From NCBI GenBank assembly GCA_030684405.1, contig JAUXYA010000032.1, positions 238,764 through 302,763 of the forward strand: 64,000 nucleotides of DNA, given 5' to 3'. The notes beneath the pieces were generated by a model. It was not told the origin of the DNA. It worked only from the letters and a program-made list of their open reading frames with translations, and did not search any database. Source of the DNA: Burkholderiales bacterium. GTDB lineage: Bacteria; Pseudomonadota; Gammaproteobacteria; Burkholderiales; SG8-41. The position numbers and the translations under genes are program-made. Numbering within the stretch: position 1 is the stretch's first letter; each line of letters begins with the position of its first letter. Below are positions 10,203-60,458 of the stretch, piece after piece.

Positions 10203-10211
10203 GCGCGCATC

Positions 10212-32946: not shown

Positions 32947-34023
<1,077 letters not shown>

Positions 34024-40683: not shown

Positions 40684-41391
40684 TCAGCCTGCCAGAGCGC
40701 GCAGATGTTGGACCGCGGCGTCGCGCGAATCAATGACCCGCTGGCGTGCGATGCGCTCCGCGGCGTCGCCGTCGCCGGCGCGAATCGCCAGCAGCAGACT
40801 TTGCCAGTTTTGCACCGACTGCTGTCGGCGCTGCGGCGTAGAGAGCCCGAGCCTCGTATAACGCACGGTCTGCACCGCGAGCGAGCCGAGGATGGCTTGC
40901 AGGCGATGGTTGCCAGCGGCTTGGGTCAGCAGCCGGTTCAGGCGCAACACGATGTCGATGTATTCGTCGCCAGGGCCGGGTAGAGCAGCGGTTTGGGCCA
41001 GTTTTTCGATGTCCAGCTCCAGTGTGGGGACCAATTCGGCCCGATGCGGCCCCTCAGCAATCAGGCGGTCACGCAGGCCGTTGAGCATGGCGCGGATATC
41101 GAAGATTTCGTTGACCTCTTCAATGCTGGGATTGGTGACCTGCGCGCCGCGCCGCGGCAGGATCATCACCAGCCCGTCTTTTTCAAGCAGCCGCAACGCT
41201 TCGCGTACCGGACCGCGGCTGACTTCGAACTCCTCGGCGACGCTCTGTTCCATGACGCGCTGGCCCGGACTGTAGGTGCCGGACACGATGCGCTCGGACA
41301 GCCGGGCAGCGATCTGCTCGGGCAGCGACTGAGTCAGCGGCGCTGACTGGCGCAGCGGCGGGAACATATCTGCGGCGGGGTTGGCGGGCAT
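40684..41391 (-). CDS. GntR/FadR-family transcriptional regulator (FCD ligand domain)
   Basis: N-terminal winged-HTH …QSVAEEFEVSRGPVREALRLLEKDGLV… and a helical C-terminal domain. It is divergent from the carboxylase operon. Confidence 0.85.
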   Translation of the reverse strand: MPANPAADMFPPLRQSAPLTQSLPEQIAARLSERIVSGTYSPGQRVMEQSVAEEFEVSRGPVREALRLLEKDGLVMILPRRGAQVTNPSIEEVNEIFDIRAMLNGLRDRLIAEGPHRAELVPTLELDIEKLAQTAALPGPGDEYIDIVLRLNRLLTQAAGNHRLQAILGSLAVQTVRYTRLGLSTPQRRQQSVQNWQSLLLAIRAGDGDAAERIARQRVIDSRDAAVQHLRALAG

Positions 41392-41465
41392 GGCAAACCG
41401 ATCTGGGAAAGGAGCAGGTTCAGTGGGGCTAATGCAATATGGACACCCTAGCCCTCATTTGTAGT

Positions 41466-41511
41466 ATTGTCAACAATCTTCTTGACAACAATGTGTGGTC
41501 GAGCATAGCAT
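41466..41511 (+). promoter_or_regulatory. Candidate operator plus sigma70 promoter for the carboxylase operon
   Basis: Inverted repeat ATTGTCAA-N8-TTGACAA(c), also readable as direct repeats TTG[T/A]CAACAAT 15 bp apart. The second half is a perfect -35 TTGACA (41482-41487) with a weak -10 TAGCAT 18 bp downstream. Confidence 0.35.
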
Positions 41512-41548
41512 TCAATCCGACACTTTCCCTATTTCTGAGGAGTTCCAT

Positions 41549-41770
41549 ATGGCCCGCATCGAAGTCAAATCTGAAATTACCGGTACCGTCTGGCAGCTTA
41601 AGTCCAAGCCTGGTGACAAAGTTGAAGGTGGCGATACCCTGATCGTGATCGAGTCCATGAAAATGGAAATCCCGGTGATTACCGAGGACGGCGGCACTGT
41701 TACAGAAATCCTGGTCAAGGAAAAAGACCCCGTATCTGAGGGGCAGGTAGTTGCCATTATCGAAGGGTGA
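41549..41770 (+). CDS. Stand-alone biotinyl/lipoyl carrier domain protein (BCCP-like, 73 aa)
   Basis: Biotinyl-domain sequence with the attachment motif …VIESMKMEIPV…. ATG at 41549 follows GAGGAG. It lacks the N-terminal region and linker of AccB. Confidence 0.8.
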   Translation: MARIEVKSEITGTVWQLKSKPGDKVEGGDTLIVIESMKMEIPVITEDGGTVTEILVKEKDPVSEGQVVAIIEG

Positions 41771-41836
41771 ATCCACCGTAGTTGTTAAAAAGTGAGCGCA
41801 TGCTCTTCTCTCAAGTGTGTGTACACATTGAGAATG

Positions 41837-41854
41837 TAACTATTTGTTTTTAAA
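41837..41854 (-). repeat. AT-rich 18-mer motif copy g (minus strand reads TTTAAAAACAAATAGTTA)
   Basis: Same family. It is an exact 14-nt inverted copy of 2131-2144 and ends 22 nt upstream of the CT-A ATG, which has no obvious SD. Confidence 0.7.
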
Positions 41855-41875
41855 TAATATTTATTAAAACGGGCT

Positions 41876-43444
41876 ATGAGCTGGCAACCTGAAATAGACG
41901 AATTGCACCGCCGGCGCCAATTGGCGGAGGCCTGTGGTGGTCCGGATGCCGTGGCCAAGCATCATGCCCAAGGCAAGTTGACCGTGCGTGAGCGCATTGC
42001 CGGACTCACTGATCACGGCTCATTTCGTGAAATCGGCAAACTCGCTGGCAAAGCCAAATACGATGCCAACGGCCAGCTGACTGGCTTCGAACCCGCGCCT
42101 TATGTGATGGGTGTGGCACGGATTGATGGTCGACCGGTGGCGATAGGCGGCGAGGATTACACGATTCGCGCTGGCACCGGATTCGGTAGCGACCGGCGCA
42201 AGGGTGGGCAGGGTGGTTTCATCGAAGACCTTGCTTACGAATACCGAATTCCGCTGGTCAATCTGATCGACGGCACTGGCGGTACGGTCAATACCGCCAA
42301 GCGCAAGGGCTACACCGTGGTGCCGGGTTATGGCCAAGACGGCATGGAGCGCTCCGCCGATTTGCTGGGCATCGTGCCGGTGGTCAGTGCGGTGATGGGT
42401 ACCACCGCGGGCGGACCGTCGATGCGTGCGATCCTGTCACACTGGTCGATCATGGTCAAAGGCAGCGGGCAGATTTTTGCTGCCGGACCGCCGGTGGTCG
42501 AACGCGCGTTCGGCCACAAATTGCACAAGGATGAACTCGGCGGCACCAAGGTTGCGGTCGACACCGCAGGTACCATCGACAACGTCGCTGAAAACGAGCA
42601 GGACTGCTTTGAACAGATCCGCCGCTTTCTGTCGTACATGCCGCAGAACGTGTGGGAATTGCCCCCGCAGGTGGATTGCGGCGACCCGGTGGATCGCTGC
42701 GAGGACGCGTTGGCCAGCATCGTGCCGCGCTCGAATCGCCAAGCCTACAACATGAAGAAGCTGCTGGGCCTGATCGTCGACCGCGATTCATTGTTCGAGA
42801 TCCAGCCGACTTTCGGCAAGGCCGTGATCACCTCGCTGGCGCGGATGAATGGCAAGGTCGTCGGCATTGTCGCCAGCAACCCGATGGTCGGCGGCATCAT
42901 GGATTTCAAGGCGGCGCGCAAGCAGGGCCACTTCACCGAACTCTGCGACATGTTCAACATTCCGATCATCCTGTTCGCGGATATCCCGGGCCTGATGGTC
43001 GGCGTCGAGTCCGAGTCAGATGCAATCCTGCGTGAAGGAGTGCGTGCCCGCTACATCGGATTCCAGGTCAGTGTGCCGGTGTTTTCAGTGCTGATCCGCA
43101 AATGTTATGGCGTGGCCGGCGGTGGATTCATCGACCGCGGCGGCCTCAATTTCAAGATCGCTTGGCCCTCGGCTGAATGGGGTTCGCTACCGGTCGAAGG
43201 CGGTGTCAAGGCGGCGTACCGCCGCGAAATCGAACGCGCAGCGGATCCAGCCGCACGCGAGCAGGAACTCGAGGCCGAGTTGAAGCAACTCGCTTCGCCA
43301 TTCCGCACCGCCGAAGCTTTTGCCATCGAAGACATCATCGATCCGCGCGAGACGCGACCCTACCTCTGCCAGTTCATTGACACCCTGCAGGGTAGGCTGC
43401 GTTCGCAGCTCGGTCCGAAATTCAAAAGCGGCGTCAGGCCCTGA
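41876..43444 (+). CDS. Acyl-CoA carboxylase carboxyltransferase subunit (paralog A)
   Basis: 522 aa with full-length PccB/AccD5-type two-domain crotonase-fold carboxyltransferase similarity. Confidence 0.88.
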   Translation: MSWQPEIDELHRRRQLAEACGGPDAVAKHHAQGKLTVRERIAGLTDHGSFREIGKLAGKAKYDANGQLTGFEPAPYVMGVARIDGRPVAIGGEDYTIRAGTGFGSDRRKGGQGGFIEDLAYEYRIPLVNLIDGTGGTVNTAKRKGYTVVPGYGQDGMERSADLLGIVPVVSAVMGTTAGGPSMRAILSHWSIMVKGSGQIFAAGPPVVERAFGHKLHKDELGGTKVAVDTAGTIDNVAENEQDCFEQIRRFLSYMPQNVWELPPQVDCGDPVDRCEDALASIVPRSNRQAYNMKKLLGLIVDRDSLFEIQPTFGKAVITSLARMNGKVVGIVASNPMVGGIMDFKAARKQGHFTELCDMFNIPIILFADIPGLMVGVESESDAILREGVRARYIGFQVSVPVFSVLIRKCYGVAGGGFIDRGGLNFKIAWPSAEWGSLPVEGGVKAAYRREIERAADPAAREQELEAELKQLASPFRTAEAFAIEDIIDPRETRPYLCQFIDTLQGRLRSQLGPKFKSGVRP

Positions 43445-43464
43445 TTATCCAAAGGAGAATTGCA

Positions 43465-44448
43465 ATGAAAAAAATCATCTTCAACGTGCTGACCGGCGCC
43501 TGTGTATTGCTGGCGGCAACGGCGGCCCCGGCGCAGACTGCGTGGAAGCCGGAACGCAATGTTGAAATTATTTCCGGCACCGCCGCCGGTGGTGCCGTGG
43601 ACCGTGCCAACCGCGCGGTGCAGCGCATCTGGCAGGAAAAGAAAATCGTCGACGTCAGCACCACAGTGATGAACAAGCCGGGGGGTGGCAACACCATCGC
43701 CTGGAACTACATTAACCAGCATGCCGGCGATGGTCACTATGTTTCGATTGCGCCGTTCACGCTGCTCACCAACAAACTGGTCGGCACCAGCCCAATGACC
43801 TGGAGTGATTTCACGCCGATTTCATTGCTGTTCAACGAGTACATGACGGTGGCGGTGCGGGCGGATTCGCCAATCAAAACCGGTGCCGATCTCATCGAAC
43901 GCCTGAAAAAGGATCCTTCTTCGCTATCGATCGCCGTGGCCAGCACCCTCGGCAACCATATCCACATCGGCATTGCCAAGGCCATGAAGGCCGGCGGCGT
44001 CGACATCCGCAAGATGAAAGTGATTGCCTTCAAATCCTCGGGAGAATCGATGACCAATCTGCTGGGTGGCCATATCGACGTCGTGTCTTCAAGTACGCCG
44101 AATGTCGTCGCACAACTGCAGGCCGGCAAGATCCGTGTCATTGCTATTTCATCGGCGCAACGCATGTCTGGGGTATTCGCGACGGTACCCACCTGGAAAG
44201 AGCAGGGAATCGACGGCGTGTTTTCCGCATCCCAGGGTGCCATTGGACCCAAAGGGCTGAATGCCGGCCAGATTGCCTTCTGGGAAGGGGCATTCCAGAA
44301 ACTGTCTCAATCTGACGAGTGGAAAAAAGAACTGGCCGCGAGTTACTGGGATTCCAATTTCCTGTCAAGCAGGGAGACCGCGAAATTTTATGAAACGCAG
44401 GCAGCCGAACTGCGCAACATACTGATGGACATCGGGCTCATCAAATAA
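43465..44448 (+). CDS. Bug/TctC-family periplasmic substrate-binding protein 1
   Basis: Signal peptide and typical Bug N-terminus (…NVEIISGTAAGGAVDRANR…); 327 aa. Confidence 0.85.
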   Translation: MKKIIFNVLTGACVLLAATAAPAQTAWKPERNVEIISGTAAGGAVDRANRAVQRIWQEKKIVDVSTTVMNKPGGGNTIAWNYINQHAGDGHYVSIAPFTLLTNKLVGTSPMTWSDFTPISLLFNEYMTVAVRADSPIKTGADLIERLKKDPSSLSIAVASTLGNHIHIGIAKAMKAGGVDIRKMKVIAFKSSGESMTNLLGGHIDVVSSSTPNVVAQLQAGKIRVIAISSAQRMSGVFATVPTWKEQGIDGVFSASQGAIGPKGLNAGQIAFWEGAFQKLSQSDEWKKELAASYWDSNFLSSRETAKFYETQAAELRNILMDIGLIK

Positions 44449-44451
44449 GTC

Positions 44452-45675
44452 GTGAGCACAATCCCACAGGGTCCGCTGTCTGGTTATCGCGTGCTGGAAA
44501 TGGGATCCACCATCGCCGGGCCGTTTTGCGGGCGGCTTTTCGCCGATTTCGGAGCCGAGGTCATCAAGATCGAACCACGCGAAGGTGATGGCGTACGTTC
44601 GGCGGGTAAGCGCTACAGGGGCAAGTCGCTGTACGCAGCGAGCATTCTGCGCAACAAAAAACTGATATCCGTCGATCTGCGCCATGCCAAGGGCCAGGAA
44701 TTGGTGCGCAGGCTGGTGCCGCAATGCGATGTGGTGATAGAGAATTTCCGACCCGGCGGGCTGGAGAAATGGGGGCTGGGTTATGCCGATCTGTCCCGCC
44801 TGCGTCCGGACCTGGTGATGGTGCGCATCAGCGGCTTCGGGCAGACCGGCCCATACAGTGCACGCCCCGGCTACGGCATCATCTGCGAAGCGGCAAGCGG
44901 GCTGCGCCATCTGACCGGCGATCCGGACCGGCCACCGGCGCGCGTTGCCGTGGCGCTGACGGATTACATTACCGGATTGTATGCCGCGTTCGGCGCGGTG
45001 ATGGCGCTGCTGCATCGCAATCGTACCGGTGAAGGGCAATATGTCGATGCGGCGTTGGCCGAAGGCGCATTCAGTTTTATAGAACCGCACATACCCGCCT
45101 TCGACAAGCTCGGCGAAATCGCCAACCGTGCCGGTTCCGGGATTGCCGGAAGTGTGCCGAACAATCTGTATGCAACCGCCGATGGACAGTTCGTGCACAT
45201 CCAGGCAGCGCAGAACACGGTATTCCGCCGATTTGCGCCGGCCATTGGTCGACCCGAACTGTCCGCCGACGAGCGTTTTATCAACGCGATTGCGCGCGGC
45301 CGGCATCAGCAGGAACTGGATGACATCGTGGCGGAATGGGCCGGCAAACATACGCTGGCGGATATCCGCAAGGCGCTGGATGCGGTGGATGTTCCGGCGA
45401 TGGGCATCAATAACGTCGCCGACATATTCCTCGACCCGCATTTTCGTGAACGCGGCATGCTCGCTGAAGTGCCCGATGATGATCTCGGCGCGGTGACGTT
45501 GACCGGTGTCGTGCCCAAACTTTCGCGTACCCCCGGGCATATCCGCAAAAGCGGCGGCCGCGTTGGACAGGACACGCGCAGCGTGCTGAAACAGCTGGGT
45601 CTCAGCGCCGCCGAGCTGCAGGCCTTGGAAGCCGAGGGCGTGGTCTACTGCGATTCCGGGTCCGCCGCCGCATGA
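44452..45675 (+). CDS. Family III CoA-transferase (CaiB/BaiF type)
   Basis: N-terminal PLSGYRVLEMGSTIAGPFCGRLFADFGAEVIKIE signature and a GTG start; 407 aa. Confidence 0.88.
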   Translation: MSTIPQGPLSGYRVLEMGSTIAGPFCGRLFADFGAEVIKIEPREGDGVRSAGKRYRGKSLYAASILRNKKLISVDLRHAKGQELVRRLVPQCDVVIENFRPGGLEKWGLGYADLSRLRPDLVMVRISGFGQTGPYSARPGYGIICEAASGLRHLTGDPDRPPARVAVALTDYITGLYAAFGAVMALLHRNRTGEGQYVDAALAEGAFSFIEPHIPAFDKLGEIANRAGSGIAGSVPNNLYATADGQFVHIQAAQNTVFRRFAPAIGRPELSADERFINAIARGRHQQELDDIVAEWAGKHTLADIRKALDAVDVPAMGINNVADIFLDPHFRERGMLAEVPDDDLGAVTLTGVVPKLSRTPGHIRKSGGRVGQDTRSVLKQLGLSAAELQALEAEGVVYCDSGSAAA

Positions 45676-45682
45676 GTTGATA

Positions 45683-45700
45683 TACCTATTTGTTTTAAAA
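45683..45700 (-). repeat. AT-rich motif copy h (minus strand reads TTTTAAAACAAATAGGTA, weaker)
   Basis: Shares CTATTTGTTTT(T/A)AAA with 41840-41854 and has two mismatches to the family consensus. It lies 41 nt upstream of the CT-B ATG. Confidence 0.5.
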
Positions 45701-45741
45701 ATTTTTCATCAGTTTCCAGTTGTTAATCCGGAGCAGTCATC

Positions 45742-47277
45742 ATGGCATTTGAAGCACTGTTGCAGGAGTACGAAGCGCGCCGCGCCAGGGCGTTGGCCGG
45801 CGGCGGCGAAGAGAAATACGCCAGGCGCACGGCCAAGGGTGTGTGGAATGCGCGTCAGCGCATCGACTATCTGATGGATCCAGGCTCGTTCATCGAATCC
45901 GGGCTGTTTGCCTCCTCCGGCGTCTATCCGGAGCAGGAAGCTGAAACCCAGACCGACGGCAAGCTGGCCGGATTCGGCCGCATCCAGGGCCGCGACGTTT
46001 GCGCCGTGATCAACGATTTCACCGTCAAAGGCGCATCCACCTCAGCCACCAACAGCAAGAAAATCGCGCATATGAAGCGCACCGCGATCGAGCGCGGCAT
46101 GCCGCTGGTGCTGATCGGTGAATCCACCGGTGCGCGCTTGCCTGACGCGATGGGCTCTCGCGGCATGGGTCTGCTGCTCGGTAATGACAACACCCAGTTT
46201 CGCCGCCTGCGCGAAGTGCCCACCGCGGCCGCGGCTTTCGGCCCTTCCTTCGGTTCCTCGACCTGGCTGATGTGTCAGTCCGACTTCGCGATCATGCACA
46301 AGAGCGCGATCATGGCGGTGTCCAGTCCCGGACTGGTGTCGATGGCGCTGGGCGAGAAGGTTTCTGCCGAGGAACTTGGCGGGTGGCGCCTGCATGCTGA
46401 AACCACGGGGCTGATTGACCAGTTTGCCGACACCGAGGAAGAGGTGTTCGACCAGATCAAGAAATTCCTGTCGTACATGCCCAACCACCACCGTGAAGCG
46501 CCGGCCGACGCGCCGGTGCCGGCGGGTTCCGGTGCCGACATGGAGAAAGTGTTCGACATCCTGCCCGAGAGCCGCACCCAGGTGTATGACATGAAGCGGG
46601 TGATCAAGTGCATCGTCGACAAGGACTCGCTGTTTGAAATGAAGCCGCGTTTCGGCAAGAGCGCAGTTACCGCGCTGGCTCGTCTCGGCGGCAAATCGGT
46701 GGGCATCATCGCCAACAACCCGTTGCATCGCGGCGGCGCACTCGACGCCGATGCCTGCCGCAAGATCGTCGATTTCATCGTGATGTGCGATTCGTTCAAC
46801 ATCCCCTTCGTGATGCTGGTCGACACCCCGGGCTTCCAGATTGGCACCGAAGCCGAACGCGCCGGTGCACCGGGGAAGATCATGAATTTCATGAACGCGA
46901 TGACCCTGGTTACCGTGCCGCACCTGACGGTGATCGTGCGCAAGAGTTATGGTCGTGCCTACGTCTGTATGGGCGGCGGACGACATTCCGACGAAGTGGC
47001 GGCCTGGCCCAGCGCCGAAGTCAGCTTCATGAGTCCGGATTTTGCGACCAAGATCGTCCACGGCGTCGGCCACGGCGAGCCGGGCTTCGAGGAAGCGCTG
47101 GCCGATATTCGCAAGGGCGCCGATGTCTGGGGCCTGGCCGCGGTGTACGCCACGCAGTCGGTGATCAAGCCGCAGGATACCCGCGACTACCTGGTCCGCA
47201 TGCTCGACATCTACAGGCTGCGCATGACCAAAGGCGTCGGACAGCACCTGATGCGCAGCTGGCCGACGAGTTATTGA
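45742..47277 (+). CDS. Acyl-CoA carboxylase carboxyltransferase subunit (paralog B)
   Basis: 511 aa of the same PccB-type family as 41876-43444 but clearly divergent. SD GGAG lies upstream. Confidence 0.88.
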   Translation: MAFEALLQEYEARRARALAGGGEEKYARRTAKGVWNARQRIDYLMDPGSFIESGLFASSGVYPEQEAETQTDGKLAGFGRIQGRDVCAVINDFTVKGASTSATNSKKIAHMKRTAIERGMPLVLIGESTGARLPDAMGSRGMGLLLGNDNTQFRRLREVPTAAAAFGPSFGSSTWLMCQSDFAIMHKSAIMAVSSPGLVSMALGEKVSAEELGGWRLHAETTGLIDQFADTEEEVFDQIKKFLSYMPNHHREAPADAPVPAGSGADMEKVFDILPESRTQVYDMKRVIKCIVDKDSLFEMKPRFGKSAVTALARLGGKSVGIIANNPLHRGGALDADACRKIVDFIVMCDSFNIPFVMLVDTPGFQIGTEAERAGAPGKIMNFMNAMTLVTVPHLTVIVRKSYGRAYVCMGGGRHSDEVAAWPSAEVSFMSPDFATKIVHGVGHGEPGFEEALADIRKGADVWGLAAVYATQSVIKPQDTRDYLVRMLDIYRLRMTKGVGQHLMRSWPTSY

Positions 47278-47365
47278 GTCTTCGTGAAACGCGGAGCGCG
47301 CACCCAACACCCAATGGCCGCGGTCCACGTTTCTTTTTTCATTCTGTTTCCGGAATCCGCCCCCG

Positions 47366-49419: not shown

Positions 49420-49435
49420 TCACAGGAAATTAAGC

Positions 49436-53212: not shown

Positions 53213-53247
53213 TGATGACAATGCCAGATCGGACAAAGGAGCAGAAG

Positions 53248-54168
53248 ATGCGAGTAGGATTCATAGGACTGGGCACGATGGGCGCTTCGATTGCACTGAA
53301 CGCCATGAAGGGCGGATTCGCGCTGACCGTGCACGATGTGCGTAAGGAGGCTGCGGCGCCCCATCTCAAGGCGGGTGCGGTATGGGCAGACAGCGTTGAG
53401 GATACCGGCCGCGATGCCGATGTCGTGCTGACTTCGCTGCCGGGACCGAAGGAAGTAAAAGCCGTGGCCGAGGGGCTGATCAAGGTCATGCGTCCCGGCA
53501 AGGTGTGGTTTGACCTGTCGACCAACTCGCCGACGGTGATACGCGAACTGCATGCGCGTCTTGCCGAAAAGAAAATATCCTTGCTCGACGCGCCGGTCAG
53601 CGGCGGACCATCCGGTGCGAAGTCCGGGAAAATGGCCTTGTGGGTCGGCGGCGACAAGACCGAGTTCGAACGTTGCCGCAAGGTGCTTGATGCCGTCGGC
53701 GACCAGGTGATCCACATCGGTCCTATCGGGGCCGGTTCGGTGGCGAAGCTGGTACACAACTGCGCCGGCTATGCGATGCAACTCGCCCTGGTCGAGTTGT
53801 TCACGATGGGCGTCAAGGCCGGCGTCGAGCCCCTGCCGCTGTGGGCTGCGATCCGTCAGGGCGCACTCGGTCGCAAGCGATCCTTCGACCGCATTGGCGA
53901 CCAGTTCCTCCAGGGTAAATTTGATCCGCCGAATTTCGCGCTGGCACTGGCGCACAAGGATGTCACGCTGGCGACCGAGCTGGCACGCGAGATCGGGGTG
54001 CCGATGCGGTTGGCGAATCTGACCTACGCCGAAATGACCGATGCGTTGAACCGCGGCTGGGAGAAACGCGATTCGCGTTCGTACCTGATCCTGCAGCAAG
54101 AGCGTGCCGGCGTCAGTATCAAGGTGCCGGCCGAGGACATCGAGGCGGTGTTGAAGCGCGACGGCTGA
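53248..54168 (+). CDS. NAD(P)-dependent beta-hydroxyacid dehydrogenase (3-hydroxyisobutyrate / tartronate-semialdehyde reductase family)
   Basis: N-terminal MRVGFIGLGTMG dinucleotide fold and a 6PGDH-like C-terminal domain. SD AAGGAG precedes the ATG at 53248. Confidence 0.85.
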   Translation: MRVGFIGLGTMGASIALNAMKGGFALTVHDVRKEAAAPHLKAGAVWADSVEDTGRDADVVLTSLPGPKEVKAVAEGLIKVMRPGKVWFDLSTNSPTVIRELHARLAEKKISLLDAPVSGGPSGAKSGKMALWVGGDKTEFERCRKVLDAVGDQVIHIGPIGAGSVAKLVHNCAGYAMQLALVELFTMGVKAGVEPLPLWAAIRQGALGRKRSFDRIGDQFLQGKFDPPNFALALAHKDVTLATELAREIGVPMRLANLTYAEMTDALNRGWEKRDSRSYLILQQERAGVSIKVPAEDIEAVLKRDG

Positions 54169-54425
54169 TAAATCTGCCGGGATGTGTTTCCGGCTGGCCA
54201 GGCTTAAAGTGCGGCTTCGATCGGGTGCGCACGGCCATGCCTGATCGCCGAAGAAGACAGATGTTCCGCGCCCTGCTGCTGTGGAGCGAGCCAACGCGAG
54301 AAACGCAGGGTGCGCCGACGCTCAAAGACTATGGGAAAATCGATTTCAAGGCCTACAAACCGCCAGTAGACTGAAGACGCCCGAGGCAATCGGGCGTGGT
54401 CGACAAACAGCAGGAGGGATCCAGC

Positions 54426-54665
54426 ATGTTTGCAATTGTCAGCAAATCCGATGGTTTCCCGGTCAGCCGCAGCGTCGGCGGAGGGCAACCCGACCTCGTG
54501 GTGACCTGGACTTCGGGCGACAAGGCGAAAGCCTTCCTCGCCACCAAAGGCATCGAAGCCGAGTATTCAGTGGTGCCTCTCACCGAGGGTGCGTTGGCCG
54601 GCATGGCGAAGGCGTTGGGCTGTGATGCCGATGCCATCGCCTTTGATGCTTATCCCGAAAAATAA
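54426..54665 (+). CDS. Small hypothetical protein (79 aa)
   Basis: ORF with strong SD AGGAGGG upstream of the ATG at 54426. I recognise no family, and 167-257-nt non-coding gaps lie on both sides. Confidence 0.4.
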   Translation: MFAIVSKSDGFPVSRSVGGGQPDLVVTWTSGDKAKAFLATKGIEAEYSVVPLTEGALAGMAKALGCDADAIAFDAYPEK

Positions 54666-54832
54666 CCGTCCATGTCGCGCACGTCGGCGCCTTGACGTAC
54701 CCACCGGCTTCCGCGCGCTGCGTGTCAATCGCTCGTTCTTTGCCTGGCCTGATCCTGCCGGGCTTTCTGGCACGCCGGTGACCGGCCGTCGGCTACAATG
54801 CCAGTGACTCAATCAGGCAAGGATGGATGTGA

Positions 54833-55228
54833 ATGGAAACGCTGCATACCGGCATGACACTCACCGTTGAACGCGAGGTCACCGAGGCGATGACCACGCA
54901 GCGTGGCGAATACAAGATTTTTTCCACGCCGAACATGGTGCAGTTCTGCGAAAGTGCCGCCGGACAACTGGTGGCGCCGCATCTCAAGCCGGATCAGGGA
55001 CAGGTCGGCATGGTGGTGACCATCCGCCACATGGGGCCGACCCCGATGGGCAAACGTGTGCGCGCCGAAGTGGAACTCACCGGCATTGACCGGCGCCGCC
55101 TGAGTTTCAAGATCAGGGTTTTCGATGACGTGGAGCAGGTCGGTGAATGCGATCACGACCGTTTCGTCGTCGATCTCGACAAGTATCAGGCGAAGCTCAA
55201 ACGGAAAATTGAGAGCTCAAGCAATTAA
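54833..55228 (+). CDS. Hot-dog fold thioesterase (FlK / fluoroacetyl-CoA-thioesterase-like family)
   Basis: 131 aa. The pattern …FSTPNMVQFCESAA…GMVVTIRHMGPTP…RRRLSFKIRVFD…G…HDRFVV… resembles FlK-type thioesterases. Confidence 0.65.
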   Translation: METLHTGMTLTVEREVTEAMTTQRGEYKIFSTPNMVQFCESAAGQLVAPHLKPDQGQVGMVVTIRHMGPTPMGKRVRAEVELTGIDRRRLSFKIRVFDDVEQVGECDHDRFVVDLDKYQAKLKRKIESSSN

Positions 55229-55230
55229 TA

Positions 55231-55248
55231 TAAGTACTTGATTTTATT
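55231..55248 (-). repeat. AT-rich 18-mer motif copy e (minus strand reads AATAAAATCAAGTACTTA)
   Basis: Full WATCAANNNNTTR match in the 22-nt convergent gap between the thioesterase and the DMT transporter. Confidence 0.7.
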
Positions 55249-55250
55249 GA

Positions 55251-56030
55251 CTATTTTTGTAAAGTGCTGCGCCGCGCGAGGGCAATGCCGATGAGTACCA
55301 GCGCAGCACCGGAGAACTGTAGCCAGCCCAGGGTTTCGCCCAGCAGCACCCAGGCAAACAGCGTCGCCATCACCGGTTGCAGCAGCAGGCCTACCGAGGA
55401 AAACACCGCCGGAAGATGGGCCATTGCCCAGGCGATCAGACTCTGACCGATGACCTGTGCGCACAAGGCGATGCCGATCAGCATTACCCATCCCGTGCTG
55501 CTGTCCGGCAGCAGCTGTTCACCCGATAGCCAGGCAATCGGCAGCAGCAGCAACGCCATGATCGTGCTGCTCCAGGCCATCAGGCTTGCTGTCGGCATGT
55601 ATGCACGTAGCCGGGTCACGGCAATCTGGTAGGCGGCGTAGAACATCGCGGTAATGACGCCGAGGCCGTCGCCGAGCAGTGCCGTGCCGCCCTGGCCGAA
55701 GCTGGCGCCGATCAGCAGCAGCGTGCCGGACATGGCGGCAGCGAGTCCGGTGACGAACAGTTTTCGCGGTACCTGCCCGTAGAGCAGCCAGACCGCTGCC
55801 GCGACGAAAATCGGCGCGAGGTTGGCGAGCAGCGTGGTGTTGGCAACCGAAGTCAGCAGGATCGACCAGTGCCATACGGCGAGATCGCCGGCAAAAAAGG
55901 CGCCGACGGCGAAGAGTTTGCCGCGATGTGCGCGCAAATGCCCGGCCTGCCGCGCCACACCCTCGCTCGCCAGCGTCCACAACCACAGCAGCGGCAGCGC
56001 CAGGAACACGCGCCAGAAAGCGGTTGCCAC
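55251..56030 (-). CDS. EamA/DMT-family transporter (N-terminus unresolved)
   Basis: Polytopic EamA-like sequence. The same frame stays open and hydrophobic (…EWLALTALFAGATAIATAPLFVKVSETGP) upstream to 56165, but contains no ATG, GTG or TTG there. Confidence 0.8.
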   Translation of the reverse strand: MATAFWRVFLALPLLWLWTLASEGVARQAGHLRAHRGKLFAVGAFFAGDLAVWHWSILLTSVANTTLLANLAPIFVAAAVWLLYGQVPRKLFVTGLAAAMSGTLLLIGASFGQGGTALLGDGLGVITAMFYAAYQIAVTRLRAYMPTASLMAWSSTIMALLLLPIAWLSGEQLLPDSSTGWVMLIGIALCAQVIGQSLIAWAMAHLPAVFSSVGLLLQPVMATLFAWVLLGETLGWLQFSGAALVLIGIALARRSTLQK

Positions 56031-56136
56031 CGGACCGGTTTCGCTGACCTTGACGAACAGCGGTGCAGTGGCAATGGCAGTCGCGCCGGCGAACAGCGCG
56101 GTGAGCGCGAGCCATTCCCGCGCGGGGGTTGCCAGA

Positions 56137-56601
56137 TCAGCCCCCAGTGGCGGGAGTGCGCCGCCTCAGGCCGCGGTAGAGGCCGAACAGGATCAGCGCA
56201 TCCAGTGCCCCGGCGAATAGTCCGAACACCAGCCGTCCTTCGGTTTCAGATACCGCCACCTGCCGGCTTGACGTAGTGGCGCCGCCGGAAGTCGTGACGC
56301 TGCGCCGGAAATCACGGTCGCCGGGGCCGAAGGCGATCCAGTTGAAAAGGATCAGGAACGCGCAGAATGCGATCACAGCACAGTACGCAGCGAATTTCGG
56401 TATCAGGCGCGAACACAGCAGGCCGAGCCCGGCGCCTGTGAACACCGCGCCCGCCAGCCACAACATGACCGGCTGGCGCAGCGCACCGGGATCGGAGGGC
56501 AGCAGGCCGAGCTGCAGGCCGAAGATTGCCAGGCCTGCTGCGGTGAAGGGCGTACCGAACAACAGGGCTATCACCAGCGGAATCTGCCGGCGCGCCGGCA
56601 T
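56137..56601 (-). CDS. Hypothetical integral membrane protein
   Basis: About 154 aa with four predicted hydrophobic helices. ATG at 56601 lies 4 nt after the enoyl-CoA hydratase stop. Confidence 0.5.
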   Translation of the reverse strand: MPARRQIPLVIALLFGTPFTAAGLAIFGLQLGLLPSDPGALRQPVMLWLAGAVFTGAGLGLLCSRLIPKFAAYCAVIAFCAFLILFNWIAFGPGDRDFRRSVTTSGGATTSSRQVAVSETEGRLVFGLFAGALDALILFGLYRGLRRRTPATGG

Positions 56602-56605
56602 CGGC

Positions 56606-57382
56606 TCAGCGCCCGGTGAACTTGGGTTTGCGCTTTTCAATGAATGCCGCCATGCCTTCCTTCTGGTCTTGCGAGGCGAACAGCATCTGCAGCGTGCGCG
56701 TTTCCAGCGTGAGTCCGGTTTCCAGCGACGCGTCCATGCCGCGGATCACGGACTCCTTGGTCTGCTGGATGGCCAGCGGCGGCAGTTCAGCGATCTGCGC
56801 GGCCATAACCACGGCACGTTTCTCGACTTCTGCGTCGGGCACGATCTCGCTGACAAGGCCCATGTCAAAGGCCTCCTTTGCGCCGAATAGGTCGCCGGTA
56901 AGCACATAGCGCATCGCCTTGTATTTACCTACAGTGCGCGGGAAACGCTGGGTGCCGCCGCCGCCGGGGATGATGCCGATCTTCACTTCCGGCTGGCCGA
57001 ACTTCGCTGACTCGCCGGCGATGATGATGTCGCAGGTCATCGCCAGTTCACAACCGCCGCCCAGCGCGAAGCCATTGACTGCCGCGATCACCGGTTTCGG
57101 GCAAGCGTAAATGGTGCGCCACATTTTCTGGGTACCACGCAGTAACATTTCGATAGTCGAAGCGTTCGCCATTTCCTTGATATCGGCGCCCGCAGCGAAG
57201 GCCTTATCGTTGCCGGTGAGCACGATGCAGCGCACCGAGTCGTCATCGGTCATTTCAGTCAGGTAGTGGCCGATCAGCCGCCGCACCTCAAGGTTGAGCG
57301 CGTTGCGCGCTTCAGGCCGGTTGATGCGGATCAGGCCCACGCCTTCGGCGGGGCGCTCGGTGATGACGGCGGGTGCATTCAT
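56606..57382 (-). CDS. Enoyl-CoA hydratase/isomerase (crotonase family)
   Basis: 258 aa with typical crotonase sequence (…INRPEARNALN…GGGCELAM…). Confidence 0.9.
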   Translation of the reverse strand: MNAPAVITERPAEGVGLIRINRPEARNALNLEVRRLIGHYLTEMTDDDSVRCIVLTGNDKAFAAGADIKEMANASTIEMLLRGTQKMWRTIYACPKPVIAAVNGFALGGGCELAMTCDIIIAGESAKFGQPEVKIGIIPGGGGTQRFPRTVGKYKAMRYVLTGDLFGAKEAFDMGLVSEIVPDAEVEKRAVVMAAQIAELPPLAIQQTKESVIRGMDASLETGLTLETRTLQMLFASQDQKEGMAAFIEKRKPKFTGR

Positions 57383-57427
57383 GAATGGACTCCTGGTTTC
57401 ATTTACGGGGGGCGGTGTGAGGGGCCA

Positions 57428-57459
57428 AACGGAAACGGGCTCCTACGGAGCCCGTTTCC
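57428..57459 (-). terminator. Strong hairpin between Bug-3 and the enoyl-CoA hydratase gene
   Basis: Perfect 13-bp stem GGAAACGGGCTCC/GGAGCCCGTTTCC with a 3-nt loop. Only a weak GTTTGG follows on the minus strand. Confidence 0.4.
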
Positions 57460-57472
57460 GCAGAGCGGTTGT

Positions 57473-58453
57473 TTACTGCTTGGCGAGGCCGATATCGACC
57501 AGCACAGCCTTGATGTCGTTGTAATCCTTGGCGATGTCCTTGCTGAACTGGGCATGTCCGACGAAGTCGTCCGACCAGTAGTTCTTCTCGAGGTCAGCCT
57601 TCCAGTCCGGGTTGGAGGCTACCTTGCGCAGCACGCCTTCCCAGTAGGCGATCTGCGCAGGTGTAATATCCTTCGGCGCCATGATCGCGCGCCAGCCACC
57701 ATAGACCAGATTTGCACCCTGCTCCTTCCAGGTGGGCACTTGGGCGAAGGCGCCGGGGAAGCGCTTTTCCGCAGACACACCGATCACGCGCAGCCGTCCC
57801 TCGGCGACATGCCCGGCGACGTTGCCCGCCGCAGTGGTGACCAGGTCGATGTGGCCGCCCAGCACCGAGGTGATGGCTTCCGCCGAACCCTTGAAGGCAA
57901 TGGCTTTCAGATTGCGCGCGTTGACGCCGACGCTTTTTGCGAGCAAGCCGGCAGCGATATGGTTATGGCTGCCCAGCGTAGTGGCAAAGCCGATGGACAC
58001 CGACTGGGGATTTTCCTTCAGCTTCGCGATCAGGTCCTTGCCGGTCTTGATCGGAGAGTTCGGGTTTACCGCGAACACCACGTAGTCGTTGAACAGAGAG
58101 GCCACCGGCGTGAAGTCCATATAGCTGAGCTGACTGGTGCCGACGATGTGATTGGTCAGCAGCGCGGTGGTGCCGATCAGCAGCGTGTGCGGATCGCCCT
58201 TTTTCTGGTTGACGTAATTGAAGGCGATCGTGCTGCCGCCTCCGGGACGGTTGACCACGGTCAGCGAAACCGGGATCAGCTTGCCCTCGACAATGGCTCG
58301 TTCGACGGTACGCGCAGTCCGGTCGTTGCTGCCGCCGGGGGCGGAGCCGACGACGATTTCGACATTGCGGCTCGGTGACCAGCTTTGCTGGGCTTGGGCT
58401 GCGGGTACCGCGGCGACGATAGCGGTGACACAAAGTGCAATTAGTGATTTCAT
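57473..58453 (-). CDS. Bug/TctC-family periplasmic substrate-binding protein 3
   Basis: Signal peptide and NVEIVVGSAPGGSNDRTAR signature. It is most similar to Bug-1 (43465-44448). Confidence 0.85.
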   Translation of the reverse strand: MKSLIALCVTAIVAAVPAAQAQQSWSPSRNVEIVVGSAPGGSNDRTARTVERAIVEGKLIPVSLTVVNRPGGGSTIAFNYVNQKKGDPHTLLIGTTALLTNHIVGTSQLSYMDFTPVASLFNDYVVFAVNPNSPIKTGKDLIAKLKENPQSVSIGFATTLGSHNHIAAGLLAKSVGVNARNLKAIAFKGSAEAITSVLGGHIDLVTTAAGNVAGHVAEGRLRVIGVSAEKRFPGAFAQVPTWKEQGANLVYGGWRAIMAPKDITPAQIAYWEGVLRKVASNPDWKADLEKNYWSDDFVGHAQFSKDIAKDYNDIKAVLVDIGLAKQ

Positions 58454-58482
58454 GCTTGGGTTCTCCTCGTTTTAAGTGCGGA

Positions 58483-59448
58483 TTAAAGCTGCTTGATGCC
58501 GGCTTTTTTGATGACGTTGGCGTACTTTTCGGTTTCGGCGCGGATGAACTTGCCGAACTCCTCGATGGTGCCTCCCTTGGTGATCAGCCCGTCGCGGTCG
58601 AAGCGCTCGCGGACGTCCTTCATGTCCAGCGCCTTGTTCACGTCGGCATTGATCTTATTGACGATGTCGCGTGAAACCTTGCTCGGCGCCATCAGGCCAA
58701 ACCAGTTGCTGGCCTCATAGCCCTTGACGCCCGACTCGTGGAAAGTGGGAATCTCGGGCACCGCCGGAAAACGCTCAAGGCTGCTGATCGCGATCGGGCG
58801 CAGACGCCCGGACTTGATGTGCGGCACCAGCGCCGGCACGCCGCTGAACACCATTTCGACATTGCCCGAAATGGCGTCCGTGATGGAGGGCGTGTTGCCC
58901 TTGTACGGAACATGCACGATGTTAATACCGGCCATGTACTTCAGCAGCTCGCCTGCCATGTGGTTGGAACTGCCCAGTCCGGCATGGCCGTAGTTGAGTT
59001 GGCCCGGACGCGACTTGGCCAATGCGATCAGTTCCTTTACGTTTTTTGCCGGCAAAGAGGGATGCGCGGCGAGCAGTGCGGCCCCCTGTACACACCAGAT
59101 CACCGGCTGGAAGTCACGCGCGGTGATGTAAGGCGGTTTGGCATAGAGCGTCATGTTGATCGCGTTGGAGGCGCCGCCCATGAACAGCGTGTAACCGTCA
59201 GGTGCGGCGGTGGCCGCGAGTTCCGAGCCGATGTTGGTGGCGCCGCCAGGCCGATTGTCGACGATCACCTGCTGACCCCACATTTCCGAAACCTTGGCGG
59301 CGACGGTGCGCGCCGTGTAATCGGTGTTGCCGCCGGCGGCATAGGGTACGATGATGCGCACCGTGCGCGCGGGCCAGTTCTGGGCCAGCACAGGCGCTGC
59401 TGCCACCAGCAGCCCGAGACCCACGATCAAACCATTGAATTTTTTCAT
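58483..59448 (-). CDS. Bug/TctC-family periplasmic substrate-binding protein 4
   Basis: Start MKKFNGL… at 59448 follows GGAGGAA. Signal peptide and TVRIIVPYAAGGNTDYTAR signature; same subfamily as Bug-2. Confidence 0.85.
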   Translation of the reverse strand: MKKFNGLIVGLGLLVAAAPVLAQNWPARTVRIIVPYAAGGNTDYTARTVAAKVSEMWGQQVIVDNRPGGATNIGSELAATAAPDGYTLFMGGASNAINMTLYAKPPYITARDFQPVIWCVQGAALLAAHPSLPAKNVKELIALAKSRPGQLNYGHAGLGSSNHMAGELLKYMAGINIVHVPYKGNTPSITDAISGNVEMVFSGVPALVPHIKSGRLRPIAISSLERFPAVPEIPTFHESGVKGYEASNWFGLMAPSKVSRDIVNKINADVNKALDMKDVRERFDRDGLITKGGTIEEFGKFIRAETEKYANVIKKAGIKQL

Positions 59449-60458
59449 ATTTCCTCCTTCGTTGTGGCGGTTACCCGCACTTCGTTGTTGATTGGCTTGC
59501 CCCGGTGCCAGCATTCGAGGTTGGCCAGGAACATCTCATACACCCGGTCATCGTTGCCCAGCGCTGCGGCCGAATTGTGCGGGGAAACCAGCACATTGGG
59601 CAGGGTCCACAGCGGCGAATCCGCCGGCAGGGGTTCCTTTTCGAACACGTCGAGATAGGCGCCGCCGAGCCGGCCGTCGCGCAAAGCGGCAACCAGTGCA
59701 GTTTCGTCGATGATCTCGCCGCGCGCAACATTGATGATGTGCGCCCCTGCGGGCAGGTGCGCAAGCATCTTCGCGTTGATCAGGCCGCGGGTGTCAGCAG
59801 TCAGTGGCGCAGCCAGTACCAGCCAGTCGGCGCGCCGCAGCAGGGTTGCCAGTTGCGGCGGCGGGTGCAGTTCGTCAACCGGATCGCCCGGTTGCGGCGG
59901 GCTGCGGCGGATGCCGATCACCTTGAGCCCCAGCGCCTGTGCCAGGCGGGCGATTTCGCGGCCAATGCTGCCCAGGCCGTAGACCAGCACAATCTGGCCG
60001 GCGAGATCGCGCGGGACGTTGGGTACCCGCATCGGATCCCAGCGATGTTCATGCTGCGCGCGGATCCAGCGCGGGACATTGCGGGCCAGCATCAGCAGCC
60101 CGGCGATCGCCGTCTGTGCGATAGGCACTGCCGTAGTACCCGCGGAAGTGCTCAGGCGCGCGCCACGCTCGAGCATTTCACTGAAGATCGGATGGTCGAC
60201 GCCGGCGTTGAACACATGCAGCCATTTCAATGCGGGCGCCTTGCGCACCGTCGAAAAAAACTGGCGCCCGTGCTGCGGAATCACGTCCGACGAGAAAAAA
60301 GCGAGATCGATCCGCGCGCATTCGGCGGCCTCGAGCCGGCTTTCCGGATCAGCGGGCAACACGACCAGCTCCAGTTCAATGTCAAGCTGCCGCGCTCGCA
60401 CAGCGAGGTCCGCGCCGCGTTCGGCATGCAGTCGGTGGGAGACGAGCAGGGTGGTCAT
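59445..60458 (-). CDS. D-isomer-specific 2-hydroxyacid dehydrogenase
   Basis: NAD fold GLGSIGREIA and catalytic Arg/Glu/His region (…INVARGEIIDE…VSPHNS…). Start MTTLLVSH at 60458; ATGA overlap with Bug-4. Confidence 0.85.
   Translation of the reverse strand: MTTLLVSHRLHAERGADLAVRARQLDIELELVVLPADPESRLEAAECARIDLAFFSSDVIPQHGRQFFSTVRKAPALKWLHVFNAGVDHPIFSEMLERGARLSTSAGTTAVPIAQTAIAGLLMLARNVPRWIRAQHEHRWDPMRVPNVPRDLAGQIVLVYGLGSIGREIARLAQALGLKVIGIRRSPPQPGDPVDELHPPPQLATLLRRADWLVLAAPLTADTRGLINAKMLAHLPAGAHIINVARGEIIDETALVAALRDGRLGGAYLDVFEKEPLPADSPLWTLPNVLVSPHNSAAALGNDDRVYEMFLANLECWHRGKPINNEVRVTATTKEEI

Follow-up and report, generated by a model that had tools for sequence, protein, structure and literature searches.

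A widely distributed operon of Burkholderiales that probably combines acid uptake, CoA activation and biotin-dependent carboxylation

The window analysed here is a stretch of 64,000 nucleotides from a Burkholderiales genome (assembly GCA_030684405.1, contig JAUXYA010000032.1). It carries about 20 kb of genes for a biotin-dependent carboxylase, CoA-activating enzymes, oxidoreductases and binding proteins, which an initial annotation had read as an island encoding one complete route for an imported organic acid. We re-annotated positions 40684-60563 from the open reading frames (ORFs) and their Pfam matches and ran the NCBIfam equivalog models on 20 proteins. The gene types listed in the initial annotation were all found in their places; it had overlooked two ORFs, those for the 79-amino-acid protein sm79 and for a predicted membrane protein. 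The block was correctly located between ccsA and dapE, except that a GDPD gene and a hypothetical gene separate ccsA from the GntR gene.

The 20 kb consist of two units. Unit 1 (40684-55228, ~14.5 kb) starts with a divergent gene for a GntR/FCD regulator. It is followed by genes for a biotin carboxyl carrier protein (BCCP), the carboxyltransferase (CT) CTA, the binding protein Bug1, the family III CoA-transferase CaiB, a second carboxyltransferase, CTB, biotin carboxylase (BC), the beta and alpha subunits of an ADP-forming acyl-CoA synthetase (ACD), a protein with the fold of iron-containing alcohol dehydrogenases (Fe-ADH), a second binding protein (Bug2), a HIBADH-type dehydrogenase, sm79 and an FlK-like thioesterase. 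Unit 2 (55251-60563, ~5 kb) is on the minus strand and converges on unit 1. Counted from dapE it contains a 2-hydroxyacid dehydrogenase (2HADH), Bug4, Bug3, an enoyl-CoA hydratase (ECH), a membrane protein and an EamA transporter. We consider it highly probable that unit 1 is a GntR-controlled operon for uptake, CoA activation and biotin-dependent carboxylation.

Neighbourhood scans were carried out with one genome per GTDB species and were anchored separately on CTA, the FlK-like protein and ECH. A close set comprised 23 loci in which CTA was at least 75% identical and the flanks extended at least 9 kb to each side. BCCP and ACD alpha were present in 21 of these, CTB, BC and ACD beta in 20 each and GntR in 18; 16 had the Fe-ADH-like gene, a number restricted by the length of the flanks. 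Thus, the genes from GntR to FlK form a real unit, as the initial annotation had supposed. The unit 1 core (BCCP, CTA, CTB, BC, ACD and the Fe-ADH-like gene) was co-conserved despite rearrangement in more than 100 loci, mostly metagenome-assembled genomes (MAGs) of Burkholderiales, and BC was part of nearly all operons. In all, 181 CTA relatives were found in GTDB genomes. Among the cultured carriers are Cupriavidus necator N-1 (plasmid pBB2), Variovorax, Roseovarius and Sulfitobacter, the latter with a CTB-type CT only. The gene order differed considerably. In Rhodospirillales it is CaiB-CTA-BC-CTB-ACDβ-ACDα, in Roseovarius pacificus and Bradyrhizobium it is CaiB-CTB-BCCP-CTA, with BC and a transporter in addition, and on pBB2 of C. 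necator N-1 (CNE_RS37200-37235) GntR-Bug-CaiB-BCCP-CT-MaoC-Bug-CT-BC. The recurrence of the core genes in other orders rules out a chance juxtaposition for unit 1.

Unit 2 was a fixed block beside dapE wherever the flank showed it, down to 66% ECH identity, and it adjoined dapE whether or not the carboxylase operon was alongside. In three sister MAGs unit 2 and the operon share a contig at a distance of about 80-100 kb (L218 vs L010/L091, L224 vs L025/L104 and L223 vs L076; L numbers designate related loci). Among 22 FlK-anchored loci with full flanks, nine had both units, nine the operon alone and three unit 2 alone. Because unit 2 stays with dapE independently of the operon, the block was split. 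ECH, 2HADH, the EamA (DMT-type) exporter and, of the four Bug proteins, Bug3 and Bug4 had all been assigned to the pathway initially; they belong to unit 2. With them hydration and one of the three proposed oxidoreductases are lost from the route in the window. A single 20-kb pathway was an overstatement; the left 14.5 kb hold together and the right 5 kb are separate. Nor is the region an island. Its G+C content of 0.59-0.66 is no different from that of the remaining window and its position is syntenic in relatives; the locus is therefore chromosomal and not compositionally set apart.

Table 1. Features of the re-annotated region (positions in the 64,000-nucleotide window).
Feature	Position	Strand	Basis
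Unit 1			
GntR/FCD regulator	40684-41391	-	Pfam GntR 7e-20, FCD 3e-15
Putative operator-promoter	41466-41511	+	two TTGT-NN-ACAA-type sites, ATTGTCAACAAT and CTTGACAACAAT
BCCP, free 73-amino-acid biotinyl domain	41549-41770	+	Pfam Biotin_lipoyl 1.7e-15
CTA carboxyltransferase	41876-43444	+	Pfam Carboxyl_trans (PF01039) 3e-89, full length
Bug1, TTT-family periplasmic binding protein	43465-44448	+	Pfam TctC 2e-29; signal-peptide-like N-terminus
CaiB, family III CoA-transferase	44452-45675	+	Pfam CoA_transf_3 (PF02515) 4e-117, full profile
CTB carboxyltransferase	45742-47277	+	Pfam Carboxyl_trans (PF01039) 2e-97, full length
BC, ATP-grasp biotin carboxylase	47366-48715	+	Biotin_carb_N, CPSase_L_D2, Biotin_carb_C, E 1e-37 to 1e-60
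ACD beta	48712-49419	+	Pfam ATP-grasp_5 3e-69
ACD alpha	49436-50872	+	Pfam CoA_binding_2 + Succ_CoA_lig
Fe-ADH-fold protein	50875-52071	+	Pfam Fe-ADH 5e-29
Bug2, TTT binding protein	52190-53212	+	Pfam TctC 4e-57
HIBADH-type beta-hydroxyacid dehydrogenase	53212 or 53248 to 54168	+	NAD_binding_2, NAD_binding_11
sm79, 79-amino-acid protein	54426-54665	+	no Pfam or NCBIfam match
FlK-like hot-dog thioesterase, terminal gene	54833-55228	+	Pfam FlK 8e-29
Unit 2			
EamA transporter	55251-56030	-	Pfam
167-amino-acid predicted membrane protein	56137-56640	-	no Pfam family
ECH (ECH_1)	56606-57382	-	Pfam; generic crotonase NF006007 382 bits, cutoff 355
Bug3 (TctC)	57473-58453	-	Pfam
Bug4 (TctC)	58483-59514	-	Pfam
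2HADH (2-Hacid_dh_C)	59445-60458/60563	-	Pfam
Flank			
dapE-like ORF	60519-61700		copies 73-96% identical flank unit 2 in related loci

The intergenic region between GntR and BCCP was aligned across 40 orthologous loci. In most of them the segment at 41466-41492, ATTGTCAACAAT-CTTC-TTGACAACAAT, was near-invariant. GntR-family proteins bind sites of the TTGT-NN-ACAA kind. Here two such sites overlap a promoter with a -35 box TTGACA, an 18-nt spacer and a -10 box TAGCAT which, with 10 of 12 matches, was the best sigma-70-like site of the 20 kb. An AGGAG site 5' of the BCCP start codon ATG was conserved among the aligned loci. Further copies of the operator were absent from the intergenic DNA of the region, unit 2 included. 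Likely, the pair of sites is the GntR operator. Most genes of unit 1 overlap their neighbour or are 2-20 nt apart from it; BC, for instance, overlaps ACD beta by 4 nt. From the conserved operator-promoter and the gene spacing we infer that GntR acts as a repressor and that unit 1 is co-transcribed. The regulator reached no NCBIfam equivalog (best phnR_burk, 115 bits vs a cutoff of 271). A terminator scan of the region gave counts no higher than in shuffles, and Rfam and tRNA scans of the 20 kb were without a match.

The biotinylation motif of the carrier protein reads ESMKME and contains the required (A/S)MKM. The protein passed the NCBIfam model NF004547 'biotin/lipoyl-binding carrier protein' with 84.3 bits (cutoff 75). 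Apart from the generic crotonase model for ECH of unit 2 this was the sole cutoff reached by the 20 proteins. As no enzyme-level equivalog cutoff was reached, no pathway name follows. BC has all three BC domains; the AccC-type NCBIfam models gave 517 bits, below the cutoff of 597.

CTA and CTB are 32% identical (BLASTP). With solved CTs of the ACC/PCC/12S/MmdA type they scored 260-287 bits (CTA 264-287), with the beta subunits of MCC/GCC 125-172 bits and with GcdA of glutaconyl-CoA decarboxylase 80-95 bits (CTA 80). The sole NCBIfam match of the two was the mmdA subfamily with 334 and 315 bits at a cutoff of 999. Plasmid-borne PccB-type CTs are about 40% identical to CTA. Orthologues of CTB from plasmid records are 54-62% identical, then identity drops to 36% or less. 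We aligned 91 CTA-type and 48 CTB-type sequences to Streptomyces coelicolor PccB. CTA retains G182-G183 of the N-domain, and in its C-domain G(M/V)AG(G/M) replaces GGAYD of PccB. In CTB the N-domain motif is FGSS, i.e. G183 is replaced by S, and the C-domain loop is PccB-like, G(R/Q)AY(V/L)(C/N)MG. G419 of PccB is replaced in both, by M/V in CTA and by R/Q in CTB, and A420 is kept in both. At position 422, the specificity residue of PccB, G/M is present in CTA and V/L in CTB, never Asp. CTA and CTB are distinct PccB-like clades, and by the drop in identity that of CTB is sharply bounded. The complementary motif losses raised the idea of an obligate CTA/CTB hetero-site; it was weakened by phyla which have CTA only, with the same CTA motifs. 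The positions altered in the engineered glycolyl-CoA carboxylase were mapped onto CTB, but the loop alignment was too gapped and was not used.

Two parallel ways of CoA activation are encoded, as the initial annotation had proposed. CaiB carries the Asp motif D-x-x-T-G (DYITG). Among named families it is closest to the succinate-glutarate (260 bits, cutoff 750), succinyl-CoA:mesaconate and hydroxymethylglutarate CoA-transferases. The SUGCT structure 9br6 gave 212 bits, and in the PDB ranking CaiB was closer to transferases than to racemases. The ACD subunits contain the motifs LHKSD (beta) and SHTGS (alpha), those of the two catalytic histidines; the best NCBIfam matches were ADP-forming 3-hydroxypropionate-, 4-hydroxybutyrate- and acetate-CoA ligases, all far below cutoff. 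Bug1 matched best with the solved TTT binding proteins 25hk and BugD. Of the 23 close loci, 4 had Bug1 in the slot between CTA and CTB and 3 had CaiB. Bug2 occurred in a subset of the operons and is accessory.

The Fe-ADH-fold protein has the fold that its name implies; it lacks, though, all four metal ligands of FucO (D196/H200/H263/H277). Across 52 orthologues the first of these positions is S, T or A (S in the window), followed by invariant R, Y and Q. The NAD-binding GxGS motif is retained. Going by these residues the protein is not an iron enzyme, although it had been listed as one, and may represent a metal-free subfamily with an Arg/Tyr/Gln site. Its gene is directly 3' of ACD alpha in nearly all betaproteobacterial operons. 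The AlphaFold2 (AF2) model was poor (pLDDT 67) and unfit for a fold search. The HIBADH-type dehydrogenase matched best with 2-hydroxy-3-oxopropionate reductase in NCBIfam (196 bits vs a cutoff of 397). Its gene is accessory; 27 related loci have it with at least 87% identity.

The thioesterase aligned with FlK structures at 1e-17, and T32/E40/G59/H66/R110 correspond to T42/E50/G69/H76/R120 of FlK. There, Thr42 and His76 are the catalytic pair, accompanied by Glu50 and Gly69, and Arg120 binds the alpha-substituent (PMC2903362). A fluorinase-type gene context was not seen in any locus. Distant FlK homologues, 33% identical, reside in clusters of the order ECH-CaiB-TRAP-FlK-Amidohydro_2 (twice) in Paraburkholderia and Pandoraea (L144-L146, ~5000-12400). 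It appears that thioesterases of the FlK family accompany pathways with CoA-transferases in general and are not confined to fluoroacetate resistance. The predicted catalytic motifs of BCCP, CaiB, ACD and the thioesterase are all intact. Finally, sm79 had 246 homologues among 5.8 billion proteins, all from the same lineage, and resides in the operon in related loci as well. It is predicted to be cytosolic. Its AF2 model (pLDDT 88) gave no significant fold match in the PDB, and the sequence matched no Pfam or NCBIfam family. On these grounds sm79 was ruled out as a known subunit.

Across lineages CaiB and CT remain constant and the transporter varies: TTT, TAXI-TRAP, DctP-TRAP or NMT1-type ABC. 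Such swaps are expected for uptake of one class of organic acids. A CaiB-like gene, 28-63% identical, was the most constant neighbour of CTA (41 of the 62 loci of a wide set). In Latescibacterota and Gemmatimonadota the clustered genes are CaiB-CTA and TAXI-TRAP only. Most operons of the window's own clade have ACD without CaiB. In distant lineages CaiB is present and ACD is often missing; in the window both occur. As ACD and CaiB replace each other across lineages, they look like alternative routes to the same acyl-CoA. The slot between CTA and CTB, occupied by Bug1-CaiB in the window, is empty in most close relatives. Variovorax and some MAGs contain repeated [Bug-CaiB-CT] cassettes alongside a single set of CTB, BC and BCCP. 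On plasmid 3 of Variovorax PBL-E5 several cassettes follow in a row (L209, 2580-14728), with one CTB-type gene and BC/BCCP nearby. Several MAGs (L082, 698-5700; L087, L119, L070) have an extra cassette between ACD alpha and the Fe-ADH-like gene; its CT is a third paralogue about 63% identical to CTA. A 268-amino-acid crotonase-family gene, ECH12, lies directly downstream of GntR in 32 related loci (e.g. L035, 7799-8605). It is 31-35% identical to ECH of the window and is absent at the corresponding position there (gap 40467-40683).

Some relatives contain further genes. In 13 loci (among them L047, 11647-14759, L038, L054, L058, L122, L125 and L131) a cytoplasmic molybdoenzyme with SUOX fold was located in or beside the CTA-CTB slot, usually together with electron-transfer flavoprotein (ETF) beta/alpha. 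It has no signal peptide, the CAGN motif is kept and the best matches, below cutoff, were the sulfite dehydrogenases SoxC/SorA. This variant hints at sulfite release or at an unusual Mo-ETF redox step. An organosulfur substrate was considered and dropped, as the window lacks the molybdoenzyme variant and a search for a C-S-cleaving enzyme gave none. Many operons of relatives also encode two small secreted proteins which are not present in the window (L023, 20208-20540; L086, 9564-9896): a glutaredoxin-fold protein with signal peptide and WCPYC motif, and a 110-amino-acid protein rich in Lys, Arg and Gln.

In the literature we found no description of this cluster, and no paper or solved structure names its pathway. 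In accordance with the initial annotation, a comparison with liu/atu, pcc, gcd, LCC and Xcc/Hpe gave no one-to-one match. As predicted from its proteins, unit 1 fails at least one defining feature of each named carboxylase family. It shares with PCC/ACC (S. coelicolor PccB, 1XNY; Thermotoga, 1VRG) the PF01039 fold (E ~1e-77 to 1e-84) and the presence of BC, BCCP and CT; CTA keeps the G182-G183 oxyanion pair of PccB and CTB a C-domain loop of the GxAY type. However, similarity at the equivalog level and D422 are lacking, and G419 is replaced in both CTs. BCCP is a free 73-amino-acid domain and not part of a fused alpha subunit, and CT is present as two paralogues. In place of epimerase and mutase, CaiB, ACD, FlK and binding proteins accompany the carboxylase. 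Neither methylmalonyl-CoA epimerase nor mutase was found in the window or in the related loci that we examined; both could be encoded elsewhere in the genome.

The mycobacterial LCC complex (AccA3-AccD4-AccD5-AccE5; 9T97) likewise has two PccB-type CTs with one BC/BCCP function and a small extra protein, the epsilon subunit, for which sm79 would be the counterpart. Yet AccA3 fuses BC and BCCP, which are separate in unit 1, mycolate or FAS/PKS genes are not present here, and neither sequence nor fold identifies sm79 as an epsilon subunit. Also, loci with CTA or CTB only speak against an obligate pair, and the context of unit 1 points to short, imported acids. MCC and GCC (liu/atu) are similar in being catabolic biotin carboxylases in acid-degradation clusters, and some relatives of unit 1 have a hydratase, ETF or lyase. 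In contrast, the CTs score far lower with MCC/GCC than with the PCC type (see above), and unit 1 has no fused alpha subunit, isovaleryl-CoA dehydrogenase, methylglutaconyl-CoA hydratase or HMG-CoA lyase (HMGL); HMGL was present in the distant locus L073 only.

XccBCA, HpeCBA and AcvCDE are three-part carboxylases with separate BC, BCCP and CT from catabolic clusters of Betaproteobacteria or Actinobacteria, and in this respect resemble unit 1. They have one CT and use a phosphorylated aryl ketone, not a CoA ester; the kinase HpeHI and the phosphatase HpeD are clustered with them (PMC9618137). The window has two CTs and CoA-activating enzymes and lacks a kinase of the HpeHI/CreHI type or a phosphatase. 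Accordingly, an Xcc/Hpe identity was rejected. The Na+-translocating decarboxylases Gcd, Mmd and Oad differ from unit 1, which has BC and no membrane beta subunit, and GcdA scored no more than 80-95 bits with its CTs. The transcarboxylase 12S/5S/1.3S has an HMGL-like, pyruvate-binding 5S subunit which is missing here.

A functional analogy exists to Frc-Oxc, where a family III CoA-transferase is tightly paired with a decarboxylase and the product CoA ester can re-activate the next substrate. In unit 1, too, a CoA-transferase is paired with an enzyme that would alter the carboxylation state of an acyl-CoA. The direction, however, would be carboxylation, the partner is a biotin and not a thiamine diphosphate enzyme, and recycling of CoA is presumed. 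With FlK of Streptomyces cattleya (3KV7) the thioesterase shares the Pfam family and Thr42, Glu50, Gly69, His76 and Arg120. It differs in the lack of a fluorometabolite context, and its substrate may be a carboxylated or alpha-polar acyl-CoA. Two further candidates were discarded: published neighbourhoods of arylmalonate decarboxylase show no link to a carboxylase or to CoA, and the published proteome for thiodipropionate in Variovorax mentions no carboxylase.

How could unit 1 operate? The orphan TTT binding proteins Bug1 and Bug2 would deliver an acid to a TctAB permease encoded elsewhere. The ADP-forming synthetase would make or prime the acyl-CoA; CaiB would form it by transferring CoA, with the carboxylated product or succinyl-CoA as plausible donors, so that CoA would be recycled. 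BC would carboxylate the free BCCP with ATP and bicarbonate, and CTA and/or CTB would move the carboxyl group to C-2 of the acyl-CoA to yield a 2-substituted malonyl-CoA. CaiB or the FlK-like thioesterase would then free the acid, with Arg110 pairing with the new alpha-carboxylate and not with fluorine. The metal-free Fe-ADH-fold protein and the HIBADH-type enzyme may catalyse NAD(P)-linked steps at a hydroxy or oxo function that the substrate or the product carries. Within a [binding protein-CaiB-CT] cassette CTA looks like the part that is specific for the substrate; CTB, BC and BCCP look like shared parts. The substrate probably is a small di- or hydroxy-carboxylate, because the transporter types and the SUGCT-like CaiB point there. 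For this full reading, in which a short acid is imported, activated with CoA and, with ATP and biotin, carboxylated at the α-position to yield a substituted malonyl-CoA, we see the chances as evenly balanced. The regiochemistry at C-2 and the fate of the product, taken by themselves, fall slightly to the doubtful side. We favour α-carboxylation since both CTs are nearer to the ACC/PCC type than to MCC/GCC or GcdA.

Several observations weigh against this mechanism. The window has no enzyme that would use a malonyl-type product, such as a mutase, epimerase or reductase; product fate is therefore guesswork. Both CTs depart from PccB in the catalytic loop (G419 in both, G183 to S in CTB). CT function may be retained because the oxyanion contacts in PccB come from backbone amides. 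Loci with CTA only (Latescibacterota, Gemmatimonadota) and with CTB only (L142, Sulfitobacter) argue against an obligate CTA-CTB pair. FlK was also found beside unit 2 without the operon (L114, L129), i.e. its link to the carboxylase is not exclusive. Finally, hydratases recur with the operon in other genomes: ECH12 by GntR in 32 loci, a FadB-like protein inside the operon in five, and MaoC in C. necator N-1 and in Sulfitobacter. Twice a lyase was located beside it, HMGL in L073 and a CoA ester lyase in Sulfitobacter.

These hydratases and lyases are a better fit to the logic of gamma-carboxylation, hydration and cleavage. Unit 1 would then resemble MCC/GCC, carboxylating the gamma-position of a beta-methyl 2-enoyl-CoA derived from a beta-branched acid, followed by hydratase and lyase steps, i.e. 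a liu/atu-like bypass of a block in beta-oxidation built from PccB-like CTs. In several loci ETF alpha/beta genes separate CTA from CTB, which implies that an acyl-CoA dehydrogenase takes part, and in L073 ECH, HMGL and acetoacetyl-CoA synthetase are directly upstream of CaiB-CTA. The latter point we judge as weak because the sister locus L151 is without HMGL and acetoacetyl-CoA synthetase. We consider gamma-carboxylation unlikely: both CTs are clearly nearer to ACC/PCC-type CTs, BC and BCCP are separate proteins and not a fused alpha subunit, and unit 1 of the window contains no hydratase, dehydrogenase or lyase for it, ECH12 included.

Another possibility is an acetyl-/propionyl-CoA carboxylase set for assimilation of the C3 acids 3-hydroxypropionate, acrylate and propionate, with the remaining steps being housekeeping functions encoded elsewhere. 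ACD would be a 3-hydroxypropionate-CoA ligase, the best NCBIfam match of its beta subunit (193 bits), and the HIBADH-type enzyme a 3-hydroxypropionate/malonate-semialdehyde dehydrogenase, as its family takes in 3-hydroxypropionate and semialdehyde dehydrogenases. CTB has V/L at the position of D422, as do CTs which accept acetyl- or propionyl-CoA, and the ECH of relatives could dehydrate 3-hydroxypropionyl-CoA. Against this, all NCBIfam scores were far below the equivalog cutoffs, CTA has G/M at 422 and an altered C-domain loop, and canonical PccB is about 40% identical. The reiterated [binding protein-CaiB-CT] cassettes imply several different acids, and acryloyl-CoA reductase, epimerase or mutase were not found among more than 200 loci examined. 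Hence, we hold a C3 route to be quite unlikely.

The two different CTs of the 12S/PccB type and a free minimal carrier similar to the 1.3S domain would also suit a transcarboxylase or decarboxylase. CaiB would activate an imported substituted malonate or a tricarboxylate, one CT would decarboxylate it onto biotin and the second would pass the carboxyl group to another acyl-CoA, as with two 12S-type subunits, or the carboxyl group would be lost. The pairing of CoA-transferase and CT resembles the decarboxylation logic of Frc-Oxc with its CoA recycling, and homologue names at JGI, which are automatic, include 'methylmalonyl-CoA decarboxylase subunit alpha'. Yet BC is in the operon almost everywhere, and known biotin decarboxylases and transcarboxylase operate without BC. 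In addition, Pfam detected neither a membrane decarboxylase beta subunit nor a 5S subunit, and loci with CTA or CTB only exist. This makes such a reaction very unlikely. That the whole 20 kb are a fortuitous juxtaposition of unrelated Bug/CaiB modules is true at the boundary of units 1 and 2, and Bug1-CaiB, Bug2 and HIBADH are accessory insertions, but for unit 1, with its core co-conserved in distant, rearranged loci and one shared conserved operator-promoter, the idea is refuted by synteny and has next to no chance.

Returning to α-carboxylation, a bolder version may be considered, which we rate as improbable. Unit 1 would be the founding example of a modular acid carboxylase in which interchangeable cassettes of binding protein, CaiB and a CTA-type CT, each recognising one imported acid, have a BC, a mini-BCCP and a subunit of the CTB type in common, and CoA is recycled from product to substrate. 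The net reaction would be acid + HCO3- + ATP to a substituted malonate, a logic hitherto undescribed in either catabolism or assimilation. One member could then be the natural counterpart of the engineered glycolyl-CoA carboxylase and its tartronyl-CoA route, and the metal-free Fe-ADH-fold protein would be an NAD-dependent enzyme of a new kind whose substrate is the dicarboxylate formed.

Unit 2 has peculiarities of its own. In some relatives (L229, L234, L255, L258, L268) a distant ACD-like alpha/beta pair, 31-44% identical to ACD of the operon, is inserted between the homologues of Bug4 and Bug3. Because of this own ACD-like pair unit 2 may be a separate CoA-dependent module for acid utilisation. 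Where unit 2 is far from the operon (L218, 14646-19054; L223, L230), EamA is followed by a minus-strand cluster in which two CTB-like CT paralogues, 52-59% identical, alternate with Bug genes. The 167-amino-acid membrane protein is 45-61% identical in some relatives. The dapE-like ORF and the 2HADH series on the minus strand start back to back. The rest of the window looks core-like by N-terminal sequences (ATP synthase, glmUS, gltBD, pilMNOPQ, hemB, resB/ccsA). Confirmation by Pfam extends to GDPD and, through orthologues from related loci, to ResB and CcsA. An anti-hemB small RNA (Rfam RF02837, 66 bits vs a gathering score of 49.5) at 34059-34148 on the plus strand adjoins the hemB-like ORF at 32947-33960 on the minus strand, in keeping with an origin of the window from Burkholderiales.

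Only a few kinds of biotin-dependent acyl-CoA carboxylase are known, and every one of them anchors a named pathway, i.e. those of fatty acid synthesis, propionate, leucine, terpenes, mycolates or aryl ketones. Here we add two CT clades linked with CoA-transferases, ADP-forming synthetases and binding proteins of high affinity. Burkholderiales of lakes, groundwater and soil contain these clades in abundance, and they are present in Alphaproteobacteria, Latescibacterota and Gemmatimonadota as well. New are these clades, the cassette architecture, the metal-free Fe-ADH-fold partner and the FlK homologue outside fluorine metabolism. Overall, the operon represents a variant of a known enzyme kind that is widespread and so far uncharacterised. 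Because cultured carriers exist, the system is directly testable in C. necator N-1 (pBB2), Variovorax PBL-E5 and SRS16, Roseovarius pacificus DSM 29589 and Sulfitobacter. If the substrate were identified, the known routes of dissolved organic acids would gain a carboxylation step and engineered CO2-fixing carboxylases would gain natural templates; a function would also be assigned to the metal-free branch of the Fe-ADH fold and to the FlK homologues that do not act on fluorinated compounds.

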